Source: a virus (Duplodnaviria; Heunggongvirae; Uroviricota; Caudoviricetes). From it: a stretch of DNA of 16,256 nucleotides. The position numbers and the translations under genes were made by a program. Below, piece by piece: positions 1,323 through 10,454 of this stretch. Every line of letters begins with the position of its first letter. Position 1 is the stretch's first letter. The notes beneath the pieces were generated by a model. It was not told where the DNA came from. It worked only from the letters and a program-made list of their open reading frames with translations, and searched no databases. Location: IMG/VR virus record IMGVR_UViG_2713896789_000020, one strand, 5' to 3'.

Positions 1323-1425
1323 TGAAGCCTGCTTTTTTATACTAAGTTGGCATTATAAAAAAGCATTGCTTATCAATTTGTTGCAACGAACAGGTCACTA
1401 TCAGTCAAAATAAAATCATTATTTG
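1323..1425. other. attL: attL (B-O-P'): lambda att core GCTTTTTTATACTAA at 1331-1345, followed by P' arm with IHF-like site (about 1366-1378, tatcaatttgttg) and three arm-type Int sites (about 1392-1421, aggtcactat / cagtcaaaat / aaaatcatta)
   Basis: Exact 15-bp lambda core seen directly; downstream arm matches lambda P' arm as recalled; int stop codon lies inside the P' arm as in lambda. Confidence 0.88.
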
Positions 1426-2489
1426 ATTTCAATTTTGTCCCACTCCCTGCCTCTGTCATCACGATACTGTGATGCCATGGTGTCCGACTTATGCCCGAGA
1501 AGATGTTGAGCAAATTTATCGCTTATCTGCTTCTCATAGAGTCTTGCAGACAAACTGCGCAACTCGTGAAAGGTTGGCGGATCCCCTTCGAAGGAGAGAC
1601 CTGATGCTTTTCGTGCGCGCATAAAATACCTTGATACTGTGCCGGATGAAAGCGGTTCACGACGAGTAGATGCAATTATGGTTTCTCCGCCAAGAATCTT
1701 TTTGCATTTATCAAGTGTTTCCTTCATTGATATCCCGAGAGCATCAACATGCAATGTTGTTGGGATGGCAATTTTTACGCCTGTTTTGCTTTGCTCGACA
1801 TAAAGATATCCATCTACGATATCAGACCACTTCATTTCGCATAAATCACCAACTCGCTGCCCGGTAACAACAGCCAGTTCCATTGCAAGTCTAAGCCAAC
1901 ATGGTGATGATTCTGCTGCTTGATAAATTTTCAGGTATTCGTCAGCCGTAAGTCTTGATCTCCTTACCTCTGATTTTGCAGCGCGAGTGGCTGCGACCGG
2001 GTTTGTTGTTATATGGCCTTCAGCCATAGCCTCTCGGAATGCATCGCTCAGTGTTGATCTGATTAACTTGGCTGATGCCGCCTTTCCCTCGTCTATGTAT
2101 CCATTGAGCATTGCCGCAATTTCTTTTGTGGTGATGTCTTCAAGTGGAGCATCAGGCAGACCCCTCCTTATTGCTTTAATTTTGCTCATGTAATTTATGA
2201 GTGTCTTCTGCTTGATTCCTCTGCTGGCCAGGATTTTTTCGTAGCGATCAAGCCATGAATGTAACGTAACGGAATTATCACTGTTGATTCTCGCTGTCAG
2301 AGGCTTGTGTTTGTGTCCTGAAAATAACTCAATGTTGGCCTGTATAGCTTCAGTGATTGCGATTCGCCTGTCTCGGCCTAATCCAAACTCTTTACCCGTC
2401 CTTGGGTCCCTGTAGCAGTAATATCCATTGTTTCTTATATAAAGGTTAGGGGGTAAATCCCGGCGCTCATGACTTCGCCTTCTTCCCAT
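1419..2489 (-). CDS. int: Lambda integrase (tyrosine recombinase)
   Basis: 356-aa ORF; translation matches lambda Int essentially along its length (MGRRRSHERRDLPPNLYIRNNGYYCYRDPRTGKEFGLGRD…, C-terminal …HLLGHKSDTMASQYRDDRGREWDKIEIK). Confidence 0.97.
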   Translation of the reverse strand: MGRRRSHERRDLPPNLYIRNNGYYCYRDPRTGKEFGLGRDRRIAITEAIQANIELFSGHKHKPLTARINSDNSVTLHSWLDRYEKILASRGIKQKTLINYMSKIKAIRRGLPDAPLEDITTKEIAAMLNGYIDEGKAASAKLIRSTLSDAFREAMAEGHITTNPVAATRAAKSEVRRSRLTADEYLKIYQAAESSPCWLRLAMELAVVTGQRVGDLCEMKWSDIVDGYLYVEQSKTGVKIAIPTTLHVDALGISMKETLDKCKKILGGETIIASTRREPLSSGTVSRYFMRARKASGLSFEGDPPTFHELRSLSARLYEKQISDKFAQHLLGHKSDTMASQYRDDRGREWDKIEIK

Positions 2490-2685
2490 TTCTGATCCTC
2501 TTCAAAAGGCTACCTGTTACTGGTCGATTTAAGTCAACCTTTACCGCTGATTCGTGGAACAGATATTCTCTTCCATCCTTAACCGGAGGAGGGAATATCC
2601 TGCATTCGCGCACCCATCGACGAACTGTTTCAAGGCTTCTTGGGCGTCGCTGGCGAGCGTTCCACTCCTGAAGTGTCAAGTACAT
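2467..2685 (-). CDS. xis: Lambda excisionase
   Basis: 72-aa ORF MYLTLQEWNARQRRPRSLETVRRWV… matching lambda Xis; 3' end overlaps int start as in lambda. Confidence 0.95.
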   Translation of the reverse strand: MYLTLQEWNARQRRPRSLETVRRWVRECRIFPPPVKDGREYLFHESAVKVDLNRPVTGSLLKRIRNGKKAKS

Positions 2686-2712
2686 CGCAAAGTCTCCGCA
2701 ATTACACGCAAG

Positions 2713-2732
2713 AAAAAACCGCCATCAGGCGG
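2713..2732 (-). terminator. Putative intrinsic terminator (minus strand): stem ccgcc/ggcgg with 4-nt loop, followed on the minus strand by a U6 run
   Basis: Plus-strand sequence agaaaaaaccgccatcaggcggc; hairpin plus T-run read directly; overlaps the stop codon of the 55-aa ORF. Confidence 0.45.
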
Positions 2733-2892
2733 CTTGGTGTTCTTTCAGTTCTTCAATTCGAATATTGGTTATGTCTGCATGTGCTATCTGCGCCCATATC
2801 ATCCAGTGGTCATAGCAGTCATTGATGTTCTCTGCTTCGATAACTCTGTTGAATGGTTCTCCATTCCATTCACCTGTGACTCGGAAGTGCAT
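2725..2892 (-). CDS. Small hypothetical protein (55 aa, MHFRVTGEWNGEPFNRVIEAENINDCYDHW…), lambda xis-adjacent orf55-like
   Basis: Own translation of the minus strand; ATG at 2892, stop at 2725-2727; region matches the lambda sequence as recalled up to about position 2936, where homology ends. Confidence 0.55.
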   Translation of the reverse strand: MHFRVTGEWNGEPFNRVIEAENINDCYDHWMIWAQIAHADITNIRIEELKEHQAA

Positions 2893-2974
2893 TTATCATC
2901 TCCATAAAACAAAACTCGCCGTAGCGAGTTCAGATATAATTTCCACCAAAGGCAGTAGTTGCTGATGCTAAGAA

Positions 2975-3403
2975 TTATTCAATATCTATTCCTGTAATAT
3001 CTTTTATCTTTTTCCTTGCAAAGCCTTTTGCTAGTGATTTTGAAACACTTATTAGTGTACTAATTCCCTCATCCTTAAAGTTTGTTTTTATAGTTTGCCA
3101 GACCTCCTTTTGACGCAAGTCAGCAATAAAATCATGCCCTCTTGCTGTCAACCTCAGTGGTACTTCGATCCAACTATATCCAACACCTTCCCCTAACTCG
3201 TTGGACATTATATGACCGAACCCAGGTTTTCCATCAACCCTGACTATTAATTCGTAGTCGCATAATAATCGCATATGGAAAATAAAATTTTGGTCATATC
3301 TATTAAAGCCATTATCCTCTAGTTCACTAAGCATCGTGTCAGGGCCATGAGTTTTTTCGAATGCGATAAGTAGATCTTTTAGATATTGCTGGTCTAATTT
3401 CAT
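2975..3403 (-). CDS. Hypothetical cytoplasmic protein, 142 aa, no recognisable family; AT-rich cargo gene
   Basis: Complete ORF with GGAGG Shine-Dalgarno 5 nt upstream of ATG (3403); strongly AT-rich codon usage unlike flanking lambda genes; no signal peptide or TM segment evident. Confidence 0.7.
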   Translation of the reverse strand: MKLDQQYLKDLLIAFEKTHGPDTMLSELEDNGFNRYDQNFIFHMRLLCDYELIVRVDGKPGFGHIMSNELGEGVGYSWIEVPLRLTARGHDFIADLRQKEVWQTIKTNFKDEGISTLISVSKSLAKGFARKKIKDITGIDIE

Positions 3404-3431
3404 TGCCGCCTCCGTGACATGTCACAGAGAT

Positions 3432-3770
3432 TTATATCATTAATTTTGTTTCGTGCCAGCCTTTGGTCACCCAGCATTGTGAGTCACCATTACACGGGCA
3501 TGAATTAACAGGAACTCTCTCGCCGCACTTACCGCAACGTTTTCTGCTGATCGATTTTATACGCCAGCGCACACGTGCATCATCCTGGCGGCTCAGTAAC
3601 GCGATGTACTCACCAAACTCGTAAGGCGCATGCCTGAAGCGGCGCGTGGCTCAGTTACGATCCAGCATTTCAATTTCCTGAGCATCAAGTACAAGCTCCA
3701 GCTTACGCATACCGGATGATGCTTGCTTGGCTCTCTGATCGACTTTGCGCTCTGCTGATGATTTAGCCAT
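3432..3770 (-). pseudogene. Cys-rich small protein ORF interrupted by a single in-frame TGA (at 3651-3653): 39 codons, TGA, then 72 codons ending …RKRCGKCGERVPVNSCPCNGDSQCWVTKGWHETKLMI; either a nonsense-mutated gene (TGG to TGA) or UGA readthrough
   Basis: Reverse complement translated codon by codon: MAKSSAERKVDQRAKQASSGMRKLELVLDAQEIEMLDRN-TGA-ATRRFRHAPYEFGEYIALLSRQDDARVRWRIKSISRKRCGKCGE…; the frame stays open across the TGA for 72 codons. Confidence 0.45.
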
Positions 3771-3966
3771 TCTGCTTTTCCTGCATTAGGAGAAAGACAA
3801 TCATGGCGGCGCGGATACTTCCGGTATCTTTTTACTCGATATTACCCTTCAATGGCACATACAAGAAGAGAGCCATCAACAGGAGTGAGTGAGGAATCGA
3901 CAACCAGCAACGCTTAATTATCTATAGTGTCGTATTTGCTTCATAAAATATGGCGAATAACACAAA

Positions 3967-3998
3967 GCCCGCAGCAGCTCATTGTGCGGGCTTTTCTT
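3967..3998. terminator. Probable bidirectional intrinsic terminator: 7-bp GC-rich stem gcccgca/tgcgggc with 11-nt loop, T-run on plus strand and U-rich tail on minus strand; likely terminates the 204-aa gene
   Basis: Hairpin and flanking A/T runs read directly (aaagcccgcagcagctcattgtgcgggcttttctt). Confidence 0.5.
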
Positions 3999-4063
3999 AT
4001 ACATACTTCCTAGAGATAATTCTATGGAGGCATTAAATTAATACTGTCATTGGTAATATCATA

Positions 4064-4678
4064 TTATCTAAAAGTCTTTCCACTTTTAACGTTTAGGTAT
4101 ATTCTGTTCGACAACGTCATTCCTCCGCAATATGTGAAATAGATGTTTTTCCCCTTATTGCTTGATGCCATCCACCCTCCGATTTCCTTAAAGTCGCTTT
4201 CCGTGCAGACCCCTTCGTTTATTAACTTCCTAGCTGCCGAAGAAAACTCTTTTTTGTATATACGGTAGTCATCAGATCCTTTGATTAAAGTATCATCTCC
4301 GCTCGCATTTTCAGCAGGATCTGATGGCCTTTCACTGCTAAGATCACTAAGTTTAACCCATTCTGAAAACTTGCCATTGACGATTCCGTTTTTTCTTGTG
4401 CAGGATTTATTACCTTCTTTAATATATTCGCTTTCCCCTCCCACACATGAGGCTGAATATGGCTCAGTTATACGAACCCATTCACCTTTTTTTTCTAGAA
4501 AATCTACGCCTTCCCTGAAAAATAGTTTCCCAGCCACTCCACATTTACTTGAAGGGCAGGTATGTCTTTCCGTTCGATCAACAACAACCCAAAGTCTTGA
4601 TTCATTTTTTGCCATTGCCGATGGTATTTGAGATGAGACAATTAACGTAAGCCCTAAAATTAGTATTGATTTTTTCAT
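4064..4678 (-). CDS. Secreted/periplasmic hypothetical protein, 204 aa, with Sec signal peptide, 6 cysteines, and a possible SH3b-like N-terminal domain; AT-rich moron-like gene
   Basis: N-terminus MKKSILILGLTLIVSSQIPSAMA- is a typical signal peptide; AAGGA Shine-Dalgarno 8 nt upstream; segment RLWVVVDRTERHTCPSSKCGVAGKLFFREGVDFLEKKGEWVRI resembles bacterial SH3 pattern (tentative). Confidence 0.75.
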   Translation of the reverse strand: MKKSILILGLTLIVSSQIPSAMAKNESRLWVVVDRTERHTCPSSKCGVAGKLFFREGVDFLEKKGEWVRITEPYSASCVGGESEYIKEGNKSCTRKNGIVNGKFSEWVKLSDLSSERPSDPAENASGDDTLIKGSDDYRIYKKEFSSAARKLINEGVCTESDFKEIGGWMASSNKGKNIYFTYCGGMTLSNRIYLNVKSGKTFR

Positions 4679-4976
4679 TGTAATTTCCTTTTACTTTTTA
4701 CAAAGCGTTTAATCATGGCTGATTATCTTTAAGCGTAGTAACAGCCTTGTGCGAAACATGTTACCAAATCGCCATTTCAGTGTATCCGCAGTTAGGCTGC
4801 CACTTCAAGGATTCCTAATTACATGGTACGTAAGCGTAAAATCCCGTTGGTTGTCGGGTAATAACTCTGATCAAATCTCCCTTGTCTTTTGCTCTTACGT
4901 ATGCAGCTCTTGTGTATTCAACCCAGGCCTCCAGTTCAGCAATACGCTTACTTCCATCCGAGATAACACCTTCTAC

Positions 4977-5228
4977 TCACGCTGCTCGTTGAGTTTTGAT
5001 TTTTGCTGTCTCCAGCTCAACACGCAGTTTCCTCACCGTTAGCGCAATATCCTCGTTCTCCTGGTCGCGGCGTTTGATGTACTGCTGGTTTCTTTCCCGT
5101 TCATCCAGCAGTGTCAGCACAATCGATGGTGTTACCAGCTCATGGAAAAGGTCCGCGTCAAATCCCCAGTTGTCATGCATTGCCTGCTCTGCCGCTTCAC
5201 GCAGTGCCTGAGAGTGAATTACGCTCAC
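4977..5228 (-). CDS. Lambda Ea22-like protein, N-terminal coiled-coil part (83 aa to the first stop); frame continues past an in-frame TGA for 53 more codons to 4818
   Basis: MSVIHSQALREAAEQAMHDNWGFDADLFHELVTPSIVLTLLDERERNQQYIKRRDQENEDIALTVRKLRVELETAK… closely resembles lambda ea22 as recalled; after TGA (4977-4979) the same frame reads VEGVISDGSKRIAELEAW…. Confidence 0.6.
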   Translation of the reverse strand: MSVIHSQALREAAEQAMHDNWGFDADLFHELVTPSIVLTLLDERERNQQYIKRRDQENEDIALTVRKLRVELETAKIKTQRAA

Positions 5229-5382
5229 TTCGAACCTCTCTGTTTACTGATAAGTTCCAGATCCTCCTGGCAACTTGCACAAGTCCGACAACCCTGAACG
5301 GCCAGGCGTCTTCGTTCATCTATNNNNNNNNNNNNNNNNNNNNNNNNNNNNNNNNNNNNNNNNNNNNNNNNNNNNNNNNNNN
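5225..5382 (-). CDS. TraR/DksA-type C4 zinc-finger protein (lambda orf73-like); 5' part hidden by the N-run, so the start is undefined
   Basis: C-terminal readable portion …IDERRRLAVQGCRTCASCQEDLELISKQRGSK carries the second CxxC of a TraR-like zinc finger; upstream part masked by Ns at 5324-5382. Confidence 0.6.
5324..5382. other. Run of 59 N (masked or unresolved assembly gap)
   Basis: Literal n characters in the sequence. Confidence 1.
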
Positions 5383-5420
5383 TGAATTGTTGGTTAATAC
5401 GCTTGAGGGTGAATGCGAAT

Positions 5421-5444
5421 AATAAAAAAGGAGCCTGTAGCTCC
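5421..5444 (-). terminator. Putative intrinsic terminator (minus strand): stem ggagc/gctcc with 5-nt loop, followed on the minus strand by a U-run
   Basis: Plus-strand aataaaaaaggagcctgtagctcc read directly; lies between the 71-aa ORF and the TraR-like gene. Confidence 0.45.
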
Positions 5445-5466
5445 CTGATGATTTTGCTTTTCATGT

Positions 5467-5682
5467 TCACCGTTCCTTAAAAACGCCGTTTAACATGCCG
5501 ATTGCTAGACTTAAATGAGTCGGTGTGAATCCCATCAGCGTTACCGTTTCGCGGTGCTTCTTCAGTACGCTACGGCAAATGTCATCGACGTTTTTATCCG
5601 GAAACTGCTGTCTGGCTTTTTTGATTTCAGAATTAGCCTGACGGGCAATGCTGCGAAGGGCGTTTTCCTGCTGAGGTGTCAC
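5467..5682 (-). CDS. Small hypothetical protein of the lambda early-left cluster (71 aa from GTG; VTPQQENALRSIARQANSEIKKARQQFPDKNVDDICRSVLKKH…)
   Basis: ORF open from 5748, but the first 22 codons overlap the upstream 27-aa ORF; the GTG at 5682 overlaps that ORF's TGA stop (GTGA), suggesting the coupled start; lambda has ATG at the equivalent position as recalled. Confidence 0.5.
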   Translation of the reverse strand: MTPQQENALRSIARQANSEIKKARQQFPDKNVDDICRSVLKKHRETVTLMGFTPTHLSLAIGMLNGVFKER

Positions 5683-5762
5683 TGAACAAGCCCCATGTCG
5701 GCAAGCATAAGCACACAGAATATGAAGCCCGCTGCCAGAAAAATGCATTCAGTGGTTGTCAT
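5679..5762 (-). CDS. Candidate 27-aa hydrophobic micro-protein (MTTTECIFLAAGFIFCVLMLADMGLVQ), translationally coupled on both sides
   Basis: Its ATG overlaps the TGA of the upstream 63-aa gene (ATGA at 5759-5762) and its TGA overlaps the GTG of the downstream gene; one predicted TM-like segment; too short for the ORF track. Confidence 0.3.
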   Translation of the reverse strand: MTTTECIFLAAGFIFCVLMLADMGLVQ

Positions 5763-5950
5763 ACCTGGTCTCTCTCATCTGCTTCTGCTTTCGCCACCAT
5801 CATTTCCAGTTTTTGTGAAAGGGATGTGGCTAACGTATGAAATTCTTCGTCTGTTTCTACTGGTATTGGCACAAACCTGATTCCAATTTGAGCAAGGCTA
5901 TGTGCCATCTCGATACTCGTTCTTAACTCAACAGGAGATGCTTTGTGCAT
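5759..5950 (-). CDS. Small hypothetical protein, 63 aa (lambda orf63-like)
   Basis: Complete [66 protein letters not shown]; same position and length as lambda orf63. Confidence 0.6.
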   Translation of the reverse strand: MHKASPVELRTSIEMAHSLAQIGIRFVPIPVETDEEFHTLATSLSQKLEMMVAKAEADERDQV

Positions 5951-6105
5951 ACAGCCCCTCGTTTATTATTTATCTCCTCAGCCAGCCGCTGTGCTTTCAG
6001 TGGATTTCGGATAACAGAAAGGCCGGGAAATACCCAGCCTCGCTTTGTAACGGAGTAGACGAAAGTGATTGCGCCTACCCGGATATTATCGTGAGGATGC
6101 GTCAT
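5923..6105 (-). CDS. Small hypothetical protein, 60 aa (lambda orf60a-like), start overlapping exo stop
   Basis: [29 protein letters not shown]…; ATG at 6105 immediately follows the exo stop (6102-6104). Confidence 0.55.
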
Positions 6106-6743
6106 CGCCATTGCTCCCCAAATACAAAACCAATTTCAGCCAGTGCCTCGTCCATTTTTTCGATGAACACCGGCACCATCTCGTCAAAACTCGCCATGTA
6201 CTTTTCATCCCGCTCAACCACGACATAATGCAGTCCTTCACGCTTCATACGCGGGTCATAGTTGGCAAAGTACCAGGCATCTTTTCGTGTCACCCACATG
6301 CTGTACTGCACCTGGGCCATGTAAGCCGACTTTATGGCCTCGAAACCACCGAGCCGGAACTTCATGAAATCCCGGGAGGTAAACGGGCATTTCAGCTCAA
6401 GGCCATTGCCGTCACTGCATAAACCATCGGGAGAGCAGGCGGTGCGCATACTTTCGTCGCGATAGATGATCGGGGATTCAGTAACATTCACGCCGGAAGT
6501 GAATTCAAACAGGGTTCTGGCGTCGTTCTCGTACTGTTTTCCCCATGCCAGCGCCTTAGCATTAACTTCCGGAGCCACACCGGTGCAAACCTCAGCCAGC
6601 AGGGTGTGGAAGTAGGACATTTTCATGTCAGGCCACTTCTTTCCTGAGCGGGGCTTGGCTATCACGTTGTGAACTTCTGAAGCGGTGATGACGCCGAGCC
6701 GTAATTTGTGCCATGCATCATCCCCCTGTTCGACAGCTCTCAC
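6102..6743 (-). CDS. exo: Lambda exonuclease (Red-alpha), 5'-truncated: lacks the native first ~13 codons and ATG; the frame upstream reads …NHPICVT before a stop, resembling a Bet fragment
   Basis: 213 aa from an internal GTG match lambda Exo from residue ~14 to the C-terminus (…GFVFGEQWR); in-frame stop at 6783-6785 upstream; no ATG. Confidence 0.9.
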
Positions 6744-6932
6744 GTCGATCCCGGTAACGCAGATCGGATGATTACCGGTTCGCTACCAGGGAAGAACGGG
6801 AAGGAAAGGTGAGCACGAATCTGATTTTCAAGGAGTGTCGCCAGAGTGCCGCGATGAAGCGGGTGTTGGCATTTTATCGCGGCAATTTTCAATAGACTAT
6901 GTACATAAAAATATCATTTTTTTAATACATGT

Positions 6933-7139
6933 CTAATTATTGGACGAAATTGGTTTTTGCTTTGGTTTAGTTAGCCTAGCAATCAAGCCAGAGGCAATAA
7001 TGATGATCCAAGCAATTTGATGCAATGCTACTCCAATATAAGAACCTTTATAGATAATAAAGGCATAGATCGCTAGAAACGAAATAAATATCCATAACGA
7101 AAGTTGATAAATTTTGGCGCGCATATTTAATCCAATCAA
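6933..7139 (-). CDS. Small putative inner-membrane protein, 68 aa, two predicted TM helices; AT-rich, unknown function
   Basis: MIGLNMRAKIYQLSLWIFISFLAIYAFIIYKGSYIGVALHQIAWIIIIASGLIARLTKPKQKPISSNN; hydrophobic stretches and basic C-terminus; divergent from the lipoprotein operon. Confidence 0.45.
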   Translation of the reverse strand: MIGLNMRAKIYQLSLWIFISFLAIYAFIIYKGSYIGVALHQIAWIIIIASGLIARLTKPKQKPISSNN

Positions 7140-7380
7140 TCAGAAAGACGAGTAATCATAGAGGTACTATCACCCGGGTAACTATTGCTATTATGAACGG
7201 ATAGGATAGAGGCTTCAATAACATATGCATCAAGTATGATGGAATATGTAGGTGAAAATGACTTGTGTCAAATTTGTGGAAATGAGTACCATGTTTCTCT
7301 GAAATTGATGTCGTTAATGGCTAGTGATAGTGAACTTTTTTACTTTATAATTCCTTTGGTTATAACAATAAGGTAAATTT

Positions 7381-7941
7381 ATGAAGAAGATAATATTATT
7401 AGCCATGATTATTGGTTCTTTAACAGGTTGCGCTAGTGTGCCACCATTGAATTTTTCAACACCTAACGTGGGAGTTAGCCAGAAAAAAATAGATGCTGAA
7501 ATTAAGTCATTAACGGTATCACTTGCTCGTCCAGATGAGCAGAAAGGGGATATCACTGCTGGTATGGAGGCTATAACTCCAATTTGGCGTGAATCTTTGC
7601 AGGAAGCACTCGACCGAATGACTATTTTTCGTGATAGTTCACCAAATACGGTTAGCTTAAATGTTAAAGTGTTGGCTCTTGACGTTCCTGCTTTTGGTGT
7701 TTCAATGACAACTAAAGCAATTGCAAGGTATGAAATAATCAACCGTGCGAATGGTGATATTATATATACGCAGGATATTGAGTCTACCGGTACTGTTCCA
7801 GCCAGTTACGCATTCTACGGTATTGTTCGAGCACGCGAATCTGTTAATCGCGCGGTGCAAAACAACATAACGCAGTTCTTGCAAGCATTAGAAAGTGTTG
7901 ATCTTTCTCGTCCAATGTTTCCTGTTAGGGTAGCTAAATGA
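7381..7941 (+). CDS. Lipoprotein of unknown function, 186 aa (lipobox LTGC)
   Basis: MKKIILLAMIIGSLTGCASV… signal peptide plus lipobox; AAGGT Shine-Dalgarno; stop overlaps the next gene start (ATGA at 7938-7941); AT-rich. Confidence 0.8.
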   Translation: MKKIILLAMIIGSLTGCASVPPLNFSTPNVGVSQKKIDAEIKSLTVSLARPDEQKGDITAGMEAITPIWRESLQEALDRMTIFRDSSPNTVSLNVKVLALDVPAFGVSMTTKAIARYEIINRANGDIIYTQDIESTGTVPASYAFYGIVRARESVNRAVQNNITQFLQALESVDLSRPMFPVRVAK

Positions 7942-8390
7942 AGCGATTATTCGTAATTGCTCCACTCTTAGTGTTGGTTGGATGCGCACAAAATATATCG
8001 CCAAATAGTTATTCTGTTGGCTCTGTGGGCATGGTTAATCGAACTATCGCTGGTACAGTTATTAGTGCTAGGGGGGTTGATATCAGTGGGACTTCCGCGT
8101 TAGGCGGGACTGCTGGGGCTGCCGTGGGGGCAACCGCTGGTTCTGCGCTTGGTGGGGGAGTTCGTTCTAATATCGTTGGTGCCGTTGGTGGTGCAGTCAT
8201 TGGTGGTATTGCCGGGGCAGCAATCGAATCTTCAGCAACAAAACAAACAGGCATGGAATATGTTGTCGAAACTGAGAATGGGAATTTAATGACCATTGTT
8301 CAAGGCAAAGATCCGTTATTTACTCAAGGAAGTAAGGTCCTTGTTTTATACGGAAACCCTTCTCGCATAATAACAGACCCGCGTCACTAA
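7938..8390 (+). CDS. SlyB-like outer-membrane lipoprotein with glycine-zipper domain, 150 aa (lipobox LVGC)
   Basis: Signal peptide plus lipobox, then Gly/Ala zipper region (GGTAGAAVGATAGSALGGGVRSNIVGAVGGAVIGGIAGAAI) and a C-terminal module resembling SlyB/Pcp (…MEYVVETENGNLMTIVQGKDPLFTQGSKVLVLYGNPSRI); from recall of SlyB. Confidence 0.85.
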   Translation: MKRLFVIAPLLVLVGCAQNISPNSYSVGSVGMVNRTIAGTVISARGVDISGTSALGGTAGAAVGATAGSALGGGVRSNIVGAVGGAVIGGIAGAAIESSATKQTGMEYVVETENGNLMTIVQGKDPLFTQGSKVLVLYGNPSRIITDPRH

Positions 8391-8398
8391 CATACCTT

Positions 8399-8427
8399 TT
8401 GATTTTGTAAAATCAATTCGTAATAAT
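8399..8427 (+). promoter_or_regulatory. Candidate sigma70 promoter (TTGATT, 17-bp spacer, AATAAT) upstream of the nin-Q operon, followed by a 10-bp-stem hairpin at 8432-8461
   Basis: Hexamers and spacing read directly; no experimental support. Confidence 0.3.
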
Positions 8428-8580
8428 AAAGTCATCGGAGCTTGAACAACTCCGGTGACTTCTGCGCTAAACGGGGACGTTTATGCGCACATACAATCCA
8501 AACTCTCTTCTCCCTTCACAGATGCAGAAATGCACCTGCGATTTTTTGCATCCAGCGTCTGACCTCTGCGGAGGTGAAGC

Positions 8581-9036
8581 GTGAACCTACCACAAGATGG
8601 CATCAAACTGCATCGCGGTAACTTCACCGCTATCGGCCAGCAGATCCAGCCTTATCTGGAGGACGGAAAATGCTTTCGCATGGTGCTTAAACCGTGGCGT
8701 GAGAAACGCAGTCTTTCCCAGAATGCACTCAGCCACATGTGGTACAGCGAAATCAGTGAATACCTCATCAGCAGGGGGAAATCGTTCGCTACCGCAGCAT
8801 GGGTAAAAGATGCTCTCAAACACACATACCTCGGTTATGAAACCAAGGACCTGGTTGATGTCGTAACCGGCGAAATCACTACTATCCAGTCGTTACGCCA
8901 TACCTCCGATCTTGATACCGGAGAGATGTATATCTTCCTGTGTAAGGTTGAAGCCTGGGCGGTGAATATTGGCTGCCACCTGACTATTCCGCAGAGCTGC
9001 GAGTTCCAGCAGCTCCGCGACAAACAGGAGGCGTAA
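8581..9036 (+). CDS. ybcN: NinB-family protein (DLP12 YbcN-like), 151 aa, GTG start
   Basis: [55 protein letters not shown]… matches YbcN/NinB family as recalled; GGAGG Shine-Dalgarno upstream of GTG. Confidence 0.85.
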
Positions 9037-9206
9037 TGGCTACACCGCTTATTCGTGTCATGAACGGACACATCTACAGAGTACCAAATCGTCGTAAGCG
9101 TAAACCGGAGCTGAAGCCTTCCGAAATACCAACACTGCTCGGATATACCGCCAGCCTGGTTGATAAAAAATGGTTGCGACTGGCAGCAAGGAGGAGTCAT
9201 GGCTGA
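9036..9206 (+). CDS. ninE: NinE-family small protein, 56 aa
   Basis: Own translation [56 protein letters not shown]; start overlaps ybcN stop (TAATG); not in ORF track (short). Confidence 0.8.
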   Translation: MATPLIRVMNGHIYRVPNRRKRKPELKPSEIPTLLGYTASLVDKKWLRLAARRSHG

Positions 9207-9489
9207 TTTGAGAAAAGCAGCGCGTGGTCGGGAATGCCAGGTAAGAATCCCTGGCGTATGTAATGGCAACCCTGAAACGTCTGTACTGGCACATATCCGG
9301 CTGACTGGATTGTGCGGCACCGGTACGAAACCGCCAGACCTGATTGCCACCATTGCATGTTCTGCCTGCCACGACGAAATCGACCGCCGCACACATTTTG
9401 TCGATGCTGCATATGCAAAAGAATGCGCGCTGGAAGGTATGGCGAGAACACAGGTTATCTGGCTGAAAGAGGGGGTTATTAAGGCGTGA
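9199..9489 (+). CDS. ybcO: DLP12 YbcO-like protein (DUF1364, Cys-rich putative nuclease), 96 aa
   Basis: [64 protein letters not shown]…; AGGAGG Shine-Dalgarno 4 nt upstream of ATG 9199; overlaps ninE end. Confidence 0.8.
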
Positions 9490-9848
9490 ATACCTACAGC
9501 ATCACATTACCCTGGCCTCCGAGCAATAATCGCTATTACCGCCATAATCGCGGGCGCACACACATCAGCGCAGAAGGGCAGGCATACCGCGATAACGTCA
9601 CCCGAATCATTAAAAACGCAATGCTGGATATCGGCCTGGCTATGCCAGTGAAAATCCGTATTGAGTGCCACATGCCGGATCGCCGTCGCCGTGACCTGGA
9701 TAATCTGCAAAAAGCCGCTTTTGACGCACTCACCAAAGCAGGTTTCTGGCTGGATGATGCTCAGGTCGTTGATTACCGCGTTGTGAAGATGCCTGTTACC
9801 AAAGGTGGGAGGCTGGAACTGACCATCACCGAAATGGGGAATGAATGA
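9486..9848 (+). CDS. rusA: RusA Holliday-junction resolvase, 120 aa (GTG start overlapping ybcO stop)
   Basis: [103 protein letters not shown]… matches E. coli RusA. Confidence 0.95.
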
Positions 9849-9985
9849 TGTTTGAGTTTAATATGGCAGAACTTCTTCGCCACCGCTGGATGCGCCTGCG
9901 CTTATATCGTTTCCCCAGTTCTGTTTTGACCGATTACCGAATACTGAGGAATTACGCCAAAACCCTGACAGGAGCAGGAGTATGA
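9845..9985 (+). CDS. ylcG: YlcG-like small protein, 46 aa
   Basis: Own translation [46 protein letters not shown]; ATG overlaps rusA stop (ATGA). Confidence 0.7.
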
Positions 9986-10070
9986 AGTCAGAGATAACAA
10001 TCAACTAATACTGTTTTATTGATTTTTGCTTGTAATTGGCGTTCTGGTCTGATTTTTGTGGAGTAAGTTG

Positions 10071-10454
10071 ATGCGTGATATTCAGATGGTTCTTGAGCGT
10101 TGGGGAGCGTGGGCGGCTAATAATCATGAAGATGTGACCTGGTCGTCCATTGCCGCCGGTTATAAGGGATTAATTACTTCAAAAGTAAAATCTCGCCCGC
10201 AATGTTGTGACGATGACGCGATGATCATTTGCGGGTGCATGGCCCGTCTGAAAAAGAACAACAGCGATTTGCACGATTTATTAGTAGATTATTATGTAGT
10301 CGGTATGACATTCATGTCACTGGCAGGTAAGCATTGCTGCTCTGATGGTTATATCGGGAAAAGGTTACAGAAAGCTGAGGGTATAATTGAAGGGATGTTA
10401 ATGGCATTAGATATCCGGTTAGAGATGGATATCGTTGTTAATAACTCTAATTAA
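10071..10454 (+). CDS. quuD: Q-type late antiterminator, DLP12 QuuD / phage 21 Q family, 127 aa
   Basis: [81 protein letters not shown]…; GGAG Shine-Dalgarno upstream of ATG 10071; ORF track lists a longer in-frame extension from 10056. Confidence 0.88.

Follow-up and report, generated by a model that had tools for sequence, protein, structure and literature searches.

A UGA codon in place of a conserved cysteine marks a probable nonsense pseudogene of a phage regulator family in a lambdoid prophage remnant

The reading frame under study lies on the minus strand of the window, the whole stretch of 16,256 nucleotides of viral DNA analysed here (IMG/VR record IMGVR_UViG_2713896789_000020); the earlier note on this DNA had given no strand. 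A 1.1-kb stretch around the ORF is 99.9% identical to Escherichia coli ATCC 8739 and to some 28 further complete genomes, and positions ~1419-10309 of the window are what is left, ~9 kb, of a lambdoid prophage that occupies the lambda attachment site between ybhC and ybhB/bioA. In the gene order of ATCC 8739, int and xis are followed by a 55-aa ORF, a DUF2513 gene and the TGA-containing ORF, then by a truncated S24/UmuD-like fragment, a 204-aa ORF, an IS1 copy and a frameshifted ea22-like fragment, and finally by TraR/DksA, exo, bet, gam, kil, cIII, a second IS1 copy and three gene fragments (Table 1). No N, pL, cI, replication, lysis or structural genes are annotated in this remnant, which contains only fragments between the second IS1 and ybhB. 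The S24 remnant is annotated in sister loci as an incomplete 'S24 family peptidase' or 'HumD', and it lies ahead of the gene, truncated in the same way, in every sister locus sampled, be the allele there intact or TGA. The 204-aa ORF, which matches phrog_8310, is likewise conserved beside the family gene in several lambdoid prophages. The GC-rich inverted repeat between the 204-aa ORF and the S24 remnant looks, from its sequence, like a terminator and possibly a bidirectional one. The promoter and terminator scan of positions 2900-4800, which scored this repeat on the plus strand only, gave no signal above chance and no promoter-like site on the minus strand ahead of the ORF.

Table 1. Coordinates of the interrupted frame, its parts and its neighbours in the window
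Feature	Position	Strand	Basis
Whole pseudogene, 112-codon phrog_536 frame interrupted at codon 40	3432..3770	-	Translation, homology and RefSeq
Premature stop TGA, codon 40, in place of the deduced ancestral TGT (Cys)	3651..3653	-	Homologue codons
39 codons still translatable: basic N-terminal helix, RHH strand region and most of RHH helix 1 (predicted)	3654..3770	-	AF2 model
72 codons and TAA past the stop: predicted RHH helix 2 and C79/C82/C91/C93/C99 cluster	3432..3650	-	Alignments and model
Final stop TAA of the 112-codon frame	3434-3432	-	
GTG-started 46-aa ORF within the dead 3' part (codon 67 on)	3432..3572	-	ORF listing
Shine-Dalgarno-like AGGA, 8 nt ahead of ATG 3770	3779..3782	-	Read from sequence
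Intact DUF2513 gene directly downstream, followed by 55-aa ORF, xis and int	2975..3403	-	Pfam DUF2513, E = 6.8e-11, and annotation
Truncated S24/UmuD/HumD-like remnant directly upstream of the ORF	3845..3910	-	RefSeq 'DNA repair protein', incomplete
GC-rich inverted repeat GCCCGCA...TGCGGGC with T-runs on both strands, between 204-aa ORF and S24 remnant	3960-3996		
204-aa ORF with lipoprotein-like signal sequence	4064-4678	-	phrog_8310, E = 2e-135; weak Pfam LPAM_1 and SH3_3
IS1 copies	~4791-5488 and ~9143-9840		

Translation of the minus strand from 3770 to 3432 yields 39 codons from the ATG, TGA, 72 further codons and TAA, which bears out the stop-interrupted frame described in the earlier note, including the stop at 3651-3653 and the G directly after it. 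The C-terminal cysteine cluster proposed there is present as well, beyond the stop, in the form C79-x2-C82, C91-x-C93 and C99. The accompanying statement that no in-frame ATG follows the TGA holds in essence, although one ATG does exist at codon 111, two codons short of the end of the frame, and an in-frame GTG at codon 67 (3572), with AGGA 8 nt upstream, opens a 46-aa ORF. The Shine-Dalgarno-like stretch ahead of the ATG shows no difference between the intact and the TGA alleles aligned. In ATCC 8739 the ORF corresponds to ECOLC_RS26175, which RefSeq already annotates as a pseudogene with an 'internal stop'.

A protein search with the fused frame, in which codon 40 was given a placeholder residue, matched 299 database proteins, the best of them (P0001) with 93% identity, 100% coverage and E = 1.5e-63; among the 120 matches listed of these 299, the great majority are 112 aa long with ~100% query coverage. 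The matching proteins come from E. coli, Salmonella, Citrobacter, Klebsiella, Raoultella, Enterobacter and Edwardsiella, and tblastn located the gene in 56 phage records, including phiV10, epsilon15, TL-2011b, vB_EcoP_ZX5 and the lambdoid phage Chlobot. The chance of 72 stop-free codons would be ~0.03, from (61/64)^72, and the open frame beyond the TGA is not a product of chance, because the fused frame matches intact 112-aa proteins at this E value over 100% of its length. P0001 matches phrog_536 (E = 1.5e-47, positions 2-114 of 115), a conserved temperate-phage family labelled 'transcriptional regulator'; in its intact form the family is widespread in temperate enterobacterial phages and absent from Pfam. 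The frame in the window shares its start, length and Cys cluster with members such as TL-2011b gp20 (YP_007001971.1) and the phiV10, epsilon15 and Chlobot homologues. It thus belongs to phrog_536 by full-length similarity, but in contrast to these members it has TGA for Cys-40, so that the frame is interrupted and the full protein is impossible; the locus is a pseudogene derived from phrog_536 and not a functional member. In the alignment, conservation among the homologues continues through the position of the stop without a break, and the homologues are single 112-aa ORFs and not pairs of genes, in agreement with the earlier view that the downstream part is not a separate gene. Our literature search found no experimental study of any phrog_536 member. 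A report on phage ZX5 (PMC9782041) tested a repressor, an anti-repressor and an integrase, which are ORFs other than the family member.

The family gene does not occupy a fixed place in phage genomes. In epsilon15-like phages it lies directly upstream of the small terminase gene, whereas in lambdoid prophages, that of the window among them, it lies between ea22-like genes and xis/int. Because its placement differs in this way between epsilon15-like phages and lambdoid prophages, the gene behaves as a mobile accessory gene. The placement of the epsilon15/phiV10 type may point to a function around the early/late boundary. In TL-2011b (L155, 3501-3839), the gene is found upstream of the small terminase gene and after NinX/DUF2591-like genes.

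An AlphaFold2 model of the intact protein, built from a 36-sequence alignment, has a mean pLDDT of 85.5. The model contains helices at residues 5-18, 30-43, 52-74 and 100-108 and short strands within 77-96, and its strand-helix-helix part superposes on known ribbon-helix-helix (RHH) domains of the Arc/MetJ/CopG type, namely the TraM N-domain (3omy), ParD/PrpA (7ycv) and Arc (1arq). The intact ancestor is therefore predicted to combine an RHH domain with a Cys-rich C-terminal cluster; unlike 3omy, 7ycv and 1arq, the family adds a long basic N-terminal helix and the C-terminal CxxC...CxC...C arrangement. By sequence, the intact protein has no Pfam match and no significant PDB match; no curated RHH model was significant, with RHH_1, RHH_5 and RepB appearing below threshold in single family members, and the NCBIfam model 'LexA regulated protein' gave a weak match (E = 0.028). 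Across 36 diverse members, C79 and C82 are invariant, C99 is present in at least 90%, and a Cys at 91 or 93 is usual, which provides four conserved candidate metal ligands in a CxxC...C...C arrangement. A putative zinc ribbon or other zinc-binding module at the C-terminus, as the earlier note had suggested, is plausible on this pattern. Position 40 falls within RHH helix 1 of the model and is usually Cys. This Cys is unlikely to be an essential ligand or a redox residue, because distant homologues have R, A or M in its place.

Codon 40 specifies Cys in 25 of the 25 close homologues aligned. The nearest intact alleles, those of phage Chlobot and of four P0002 prophage loci, are ~97% identical to the window at the DNA level and have TGT at this codon. 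Among the matches listed, intact IMG/VR alleles have TGC at codon 40 at no fewer than 68 loci and TGT at no fewer than 49; since the scan for the TGY pattern extended to at least 120 loci, the resulting ratio of Cys to TGA alleles is a lower bound. Because Cys is found in all of the aligned homologues and TGT in the nearest alleles, the lesion, as reconstructed from these codons, is a change from TGT to TGA, a T>A transversion at the third position of codon 40. The TGG-to-TGA transition that had been suggested before finds no place in this alignment.

A 57-mer centred on the TGA was searched in 5426 complete E. coli genomes. It was found in 64 of them (~1.2%), in 29 exactly and in the others with one (~5), two (~29) or three (1) mismatches. 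Seven E. coli loci taken from all mismatch classes were inspected, and all seven carry the TGA together with the PGAP flag 'internal stop'. About 638 E. coli genomes carry the gene in some form, so that the TGA clade makes up ~10% of the carriers (64/638). In IMG/VR, a degenerate pattern that required TGA and allowed for the variation of the family around codon 40 returned 25 loci; 19 are true family members, and all of these belong to one narrow allele group, which comprises 9 haplotypes with the E. coli loci included. A sequencing or assembly error in the window is ruled out by the identical 57-mer in 29 independent complete E. coli assemblies, and is countered further by the ~35 near-identical TGA versions and the 19 IMG/VR contigs. 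All TGA alleles have a linked synonymous C at ORF nucleotide 129, a site at which nearby Cys alleles read T. In the IMG/VR scan, TGA at codon 40 was absent from divergent alleles of the Salmonella, Klebsiella or Citrobacter type. A scan of genome contigs for TGA alleles in other species was swamped by chance matches, with none family-like among the 120 listed, and does not bear on this point. Because all 19 IMG/VR loci and the seven E. coli loci fall into one clade with the shared C at nucleotide 129, the sequences indicate that the TGA mutation arose once, in one E. coli lambdoid-phage allele.

The clade has since reached at least three prophage contexts. In this window and in L003 it sits at the lambda attachment site, in L002 it sits in a prophage adjoining torI/dsdC, and in L004/L156 it is carried on a 43-kb circular record with a near-complete lambdoid genome. 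The earlier description as a recent nonsense mutation is right as to a nonsense change in a once-continuous gene, but 'recent' applies only in a relative sense, given the 9 haplotypes and the three or more contexts. As the allele accounts for ~10% of the carriers and rides on an apparently near-complete 43-kb genome, it is more than the debris of one dead prophage.

We then compared polymorphism in the TGA clade with that of intact alleles. The clade contains 16 polymorphic sites, 13 nonsynonymous and 3 synonymous, counts that are small and may include recombination imports such as C50, which is common to the Chlobot clade. Its pN/pS is 1.01 (Nei-Gojobori), compared with 0.12-0.25 for intact alleles and 0.17 at comparable divergence, and intact clusters of similar diversity have nonsynonymous to synonymous segregating sites of 29:33 to 40:64 (Fisher p against the TGA clade, 0.02-0.002). 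Constraint in the TGA clade is relaxed. For the codons past the stop alone, pN/pS is 0.57 (8 nonsynonymous, 3 synonymous), where the counts are too small to interpret. The derived changes affect residues that are conserved over the 103 intact haplotypes scored: K3R (K in 94), A10V (A in 96), R47H (R in 94), which is the window's own allele, R66H (R in 91), G80R or G80D (G in 90) and C99Y (C in all 103). One member of the clade, L032, shows an apparent additional frameshift upstream of codon 31, for which a homopolymer sequencing error is possible. Almost all TGA copies retain an uninterrupted frame past the stop; at a divergence of only 1-4%, this is expected even without selection. Elsewhere in the family, IMG/VR contains further nonsense alleles (L098, L139 and L144, at sites near the C-terminus, Q16 and E21), and because these sporadic stops lie at other positions, inactivation of this accessory gene recurs in the family. 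A rare mosaic 112-aa protein, P0010 (8 member sequences, ENA), has an intact Cys-40 and carries in its 3' part G80R and C99Y, two changes otherwise typical of one TGA haplotype. It may represent a recombinational 'repair' of the stop that kept changes acquired by the pseudogene.

Taken together, the feature is very probably an ordinary nonsense pseudogene of a gene for a phage DNA-binding protein. The ancestor would have been a 112-aa temperate-phage protein of phrog_536 with an N-terminal RHH DNA-binding domain and a C-terminal Cys cluster, in which a single T>A change would have turned codon 40, TGT for a Cys in RHH helix 1, into TGA. Ribosomes would now release a 39-residue fragment that lacks RHH helix 2 and the whole Cys cluster. 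In RHH proteins, helix 2 is the dimer core. Judging from the predicted fold, the DNA-binding dimer would be unable to form from this fragment, and because the stop removes both helix 2 and the Cys cluster, the 39-aa product is expected to be non-functional. Phage transfer and recombination would then have brought the TGA allele into several prophages, with its sequence drifting neutrally. In the remnant of the window, normal transcription was probably lost too, because pL, N and the immunity region are gone. The locus resembles the ordinary nonsense pseudogenes of decaying cryptic prophages in its single stop, truncated neighbours, IS elements, neutral-looking substitutions and PGAP flag; it differs from them in that the allele occurs in several prophage contexts and in ~1.2% of complete E. 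coli genomes and is not private to a strain.

An in-frame UGA at a site where all close homologues have Cys is also the classical Sec/Cys signature, and in this respect the frame is like the E. coli selenoprotein genes fdhF, fdnG and fdoG. If it were a selenoprotein gene, SelB and tRNA-Sec would decode the UGA as selenocysteine with a downstream hairpin as the SECIS element, and a hairpin of -12.6 kcal/mol does start 6 nt past the UGA, with its apical loop 19 nt downstream and an energy comparable to that of the E. coli fdhF element folded likewise (-14.9). However, a 71-nt stretch that takes in the UGA and the sequence after it folds with -20.8 kcal/mol against a shuffle mean of -20.0 (z = -0.28), and 80 of 200 dinucleotide shuffles fold as well as the native sequence. 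E. coli SelB needs G-U loop bases and a bulged U, as in the fdhF and fdnG elements, whereas the apical loop here is AUGC and has neither. Furthermore, the aligned TGT alleles share the downstream sequence except for one synonymous C/T difference, indicating that nothing SECIS-specific has evolved. An Rfam scan of positions 3300-3900 on both strands, with E up to 10, gave only two chance snoRNA matches. In contrast to fdhF, fdnG and fdoG, the UGA is confined to one narrow clade with no recurrence across lineages, and no purifying selection is evident at a pN/pS of 1.01; moreover, a position in an RHH helix that holds R, A or M in distant homologues does not point to a redox or catalytic Cys. 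With a SelB-type loop, above-chance structure and cross-lineage conservation of the UGA all lacking and selection relaxed, we regard a selenoprotein gene as next to impossible.

Among the stop codons of E. coli, UGA is the most prone to leak, and the earlier note had considered low-level readthrough, in which a near-cognate tRNA (Trp or Cys) would read UGA-G and supply a small useful dose of the regulator. The downstream frame is open in nearly all copies, residues other than Cys are tolerated at position 40 in distant homologues, and the allele has persisted in numerous genomes, a near-complete phage genome included, all of which such a function would accommodate. Programmed readthrough would be recognised by a stop conserved in divergent homologues and by a constrained downstream frame. 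Instead, the stop is limited to one young clade against more than 117 intact Cys alleles in IMG/VR, pN/pS is ~1 with conserved residues changed, no stimulatory RNA structure was found past the stop, and the prophage of the window lacks the region for the early-left promoter. A generic leak of ~1% or less is possible and would be incidental, being a property of any UGA and not a designed feature, which leaves functional readthrough highly improbable. A related proposal is that the TGA allele is a down-tuned regulator: tRNA-Trp or tRNA-Cys, and exceptionally tRNA-Sec, would now and then decode UGA-G and so yield a trace of full-length protein. If so, the reduced dose would explain how the allele came to occupy several lambdoid prophages and ~1% of E. 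coli genomes; we consider this a long shot. Because there is no special RNA structure, the distribution is that of a single clade and constraint is relaxed, we judge both selenocysteine insertion and programmed readthrough very unlikely.

The two halves of the frame might alternatively be separate products of a split gene, a 39-aa peptide and/or a 46-aa Cys-cluster peptide started from the GTG at 3572. Both ORFs exist and have database proteins (P0170, 39 aa; P0147, 46 aa), phrog_34005, a family of 40 positions, matches residues 1-40, and in Chlobot the 46-aa gene is called as CDS0049, a 'transcriptional regulator'. On the other hand, the GTG and its AGGA are conserved codons (R61-V67) of the intact gene and occur in all intact alleles too, the Chlobot call sits inside an intact 112-aa ORF, half an RHH domain would be unable to fold alone as judged from the fold, and the changes G80R/D and C99Y in the Cys cluster accumulate in the TGA clade. 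Since the same GTG and AGGA lie inside intact alleles, Chlobot included, the 46-aa ORF is no evidence of a gene; it is probably an annotation artefact and not an independent gene, and we consider a split gene very improbable.

The nonsense pseudogene thus remains the preferred reading, and the tempting pattern of a UGA in place of a conserved Cys reflects here a plain nonsense mutation, neither selenocysteine nor programmed readthrough. The pseudogene status is already known from public annotation through the RefSeq PGAP 'internal stop', and beyond the correction of the ancestral codon from Trp TGG to Cys TGT the overall significance is small. The locus also illustrates how automated annotation goes wrong with this gene: pieces of it are called as 39-aa and 46-aa 'proteins', and in Chlobot this happens although the gene is intact. 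In the Chlobot record (PP925838.1, L005), the intact 112-aa ORF at 2501-2839 is missing from the deposited annotation, which gives instead an overlapping, out-of-frame 'UmuD-like protein' at 2361-2678 and the 46-aa 'transcriptional regulator' at 2699-2839; this looks like a gene-calling error. Meanwhile, the circular record that carries the TGA allele (NZ_CP174001.1, 43,337 bp) is deposited as a 'plasmid' of E. coli SZQ1. It has no annotated cI, cro or N, and a truncated host-like diguanylate cyclase fragment adjoins int; its genes include terminase, portal, capsid, head and tail genes, exo/bet/gam, O/P-like replication genes, Q and lysis genes.
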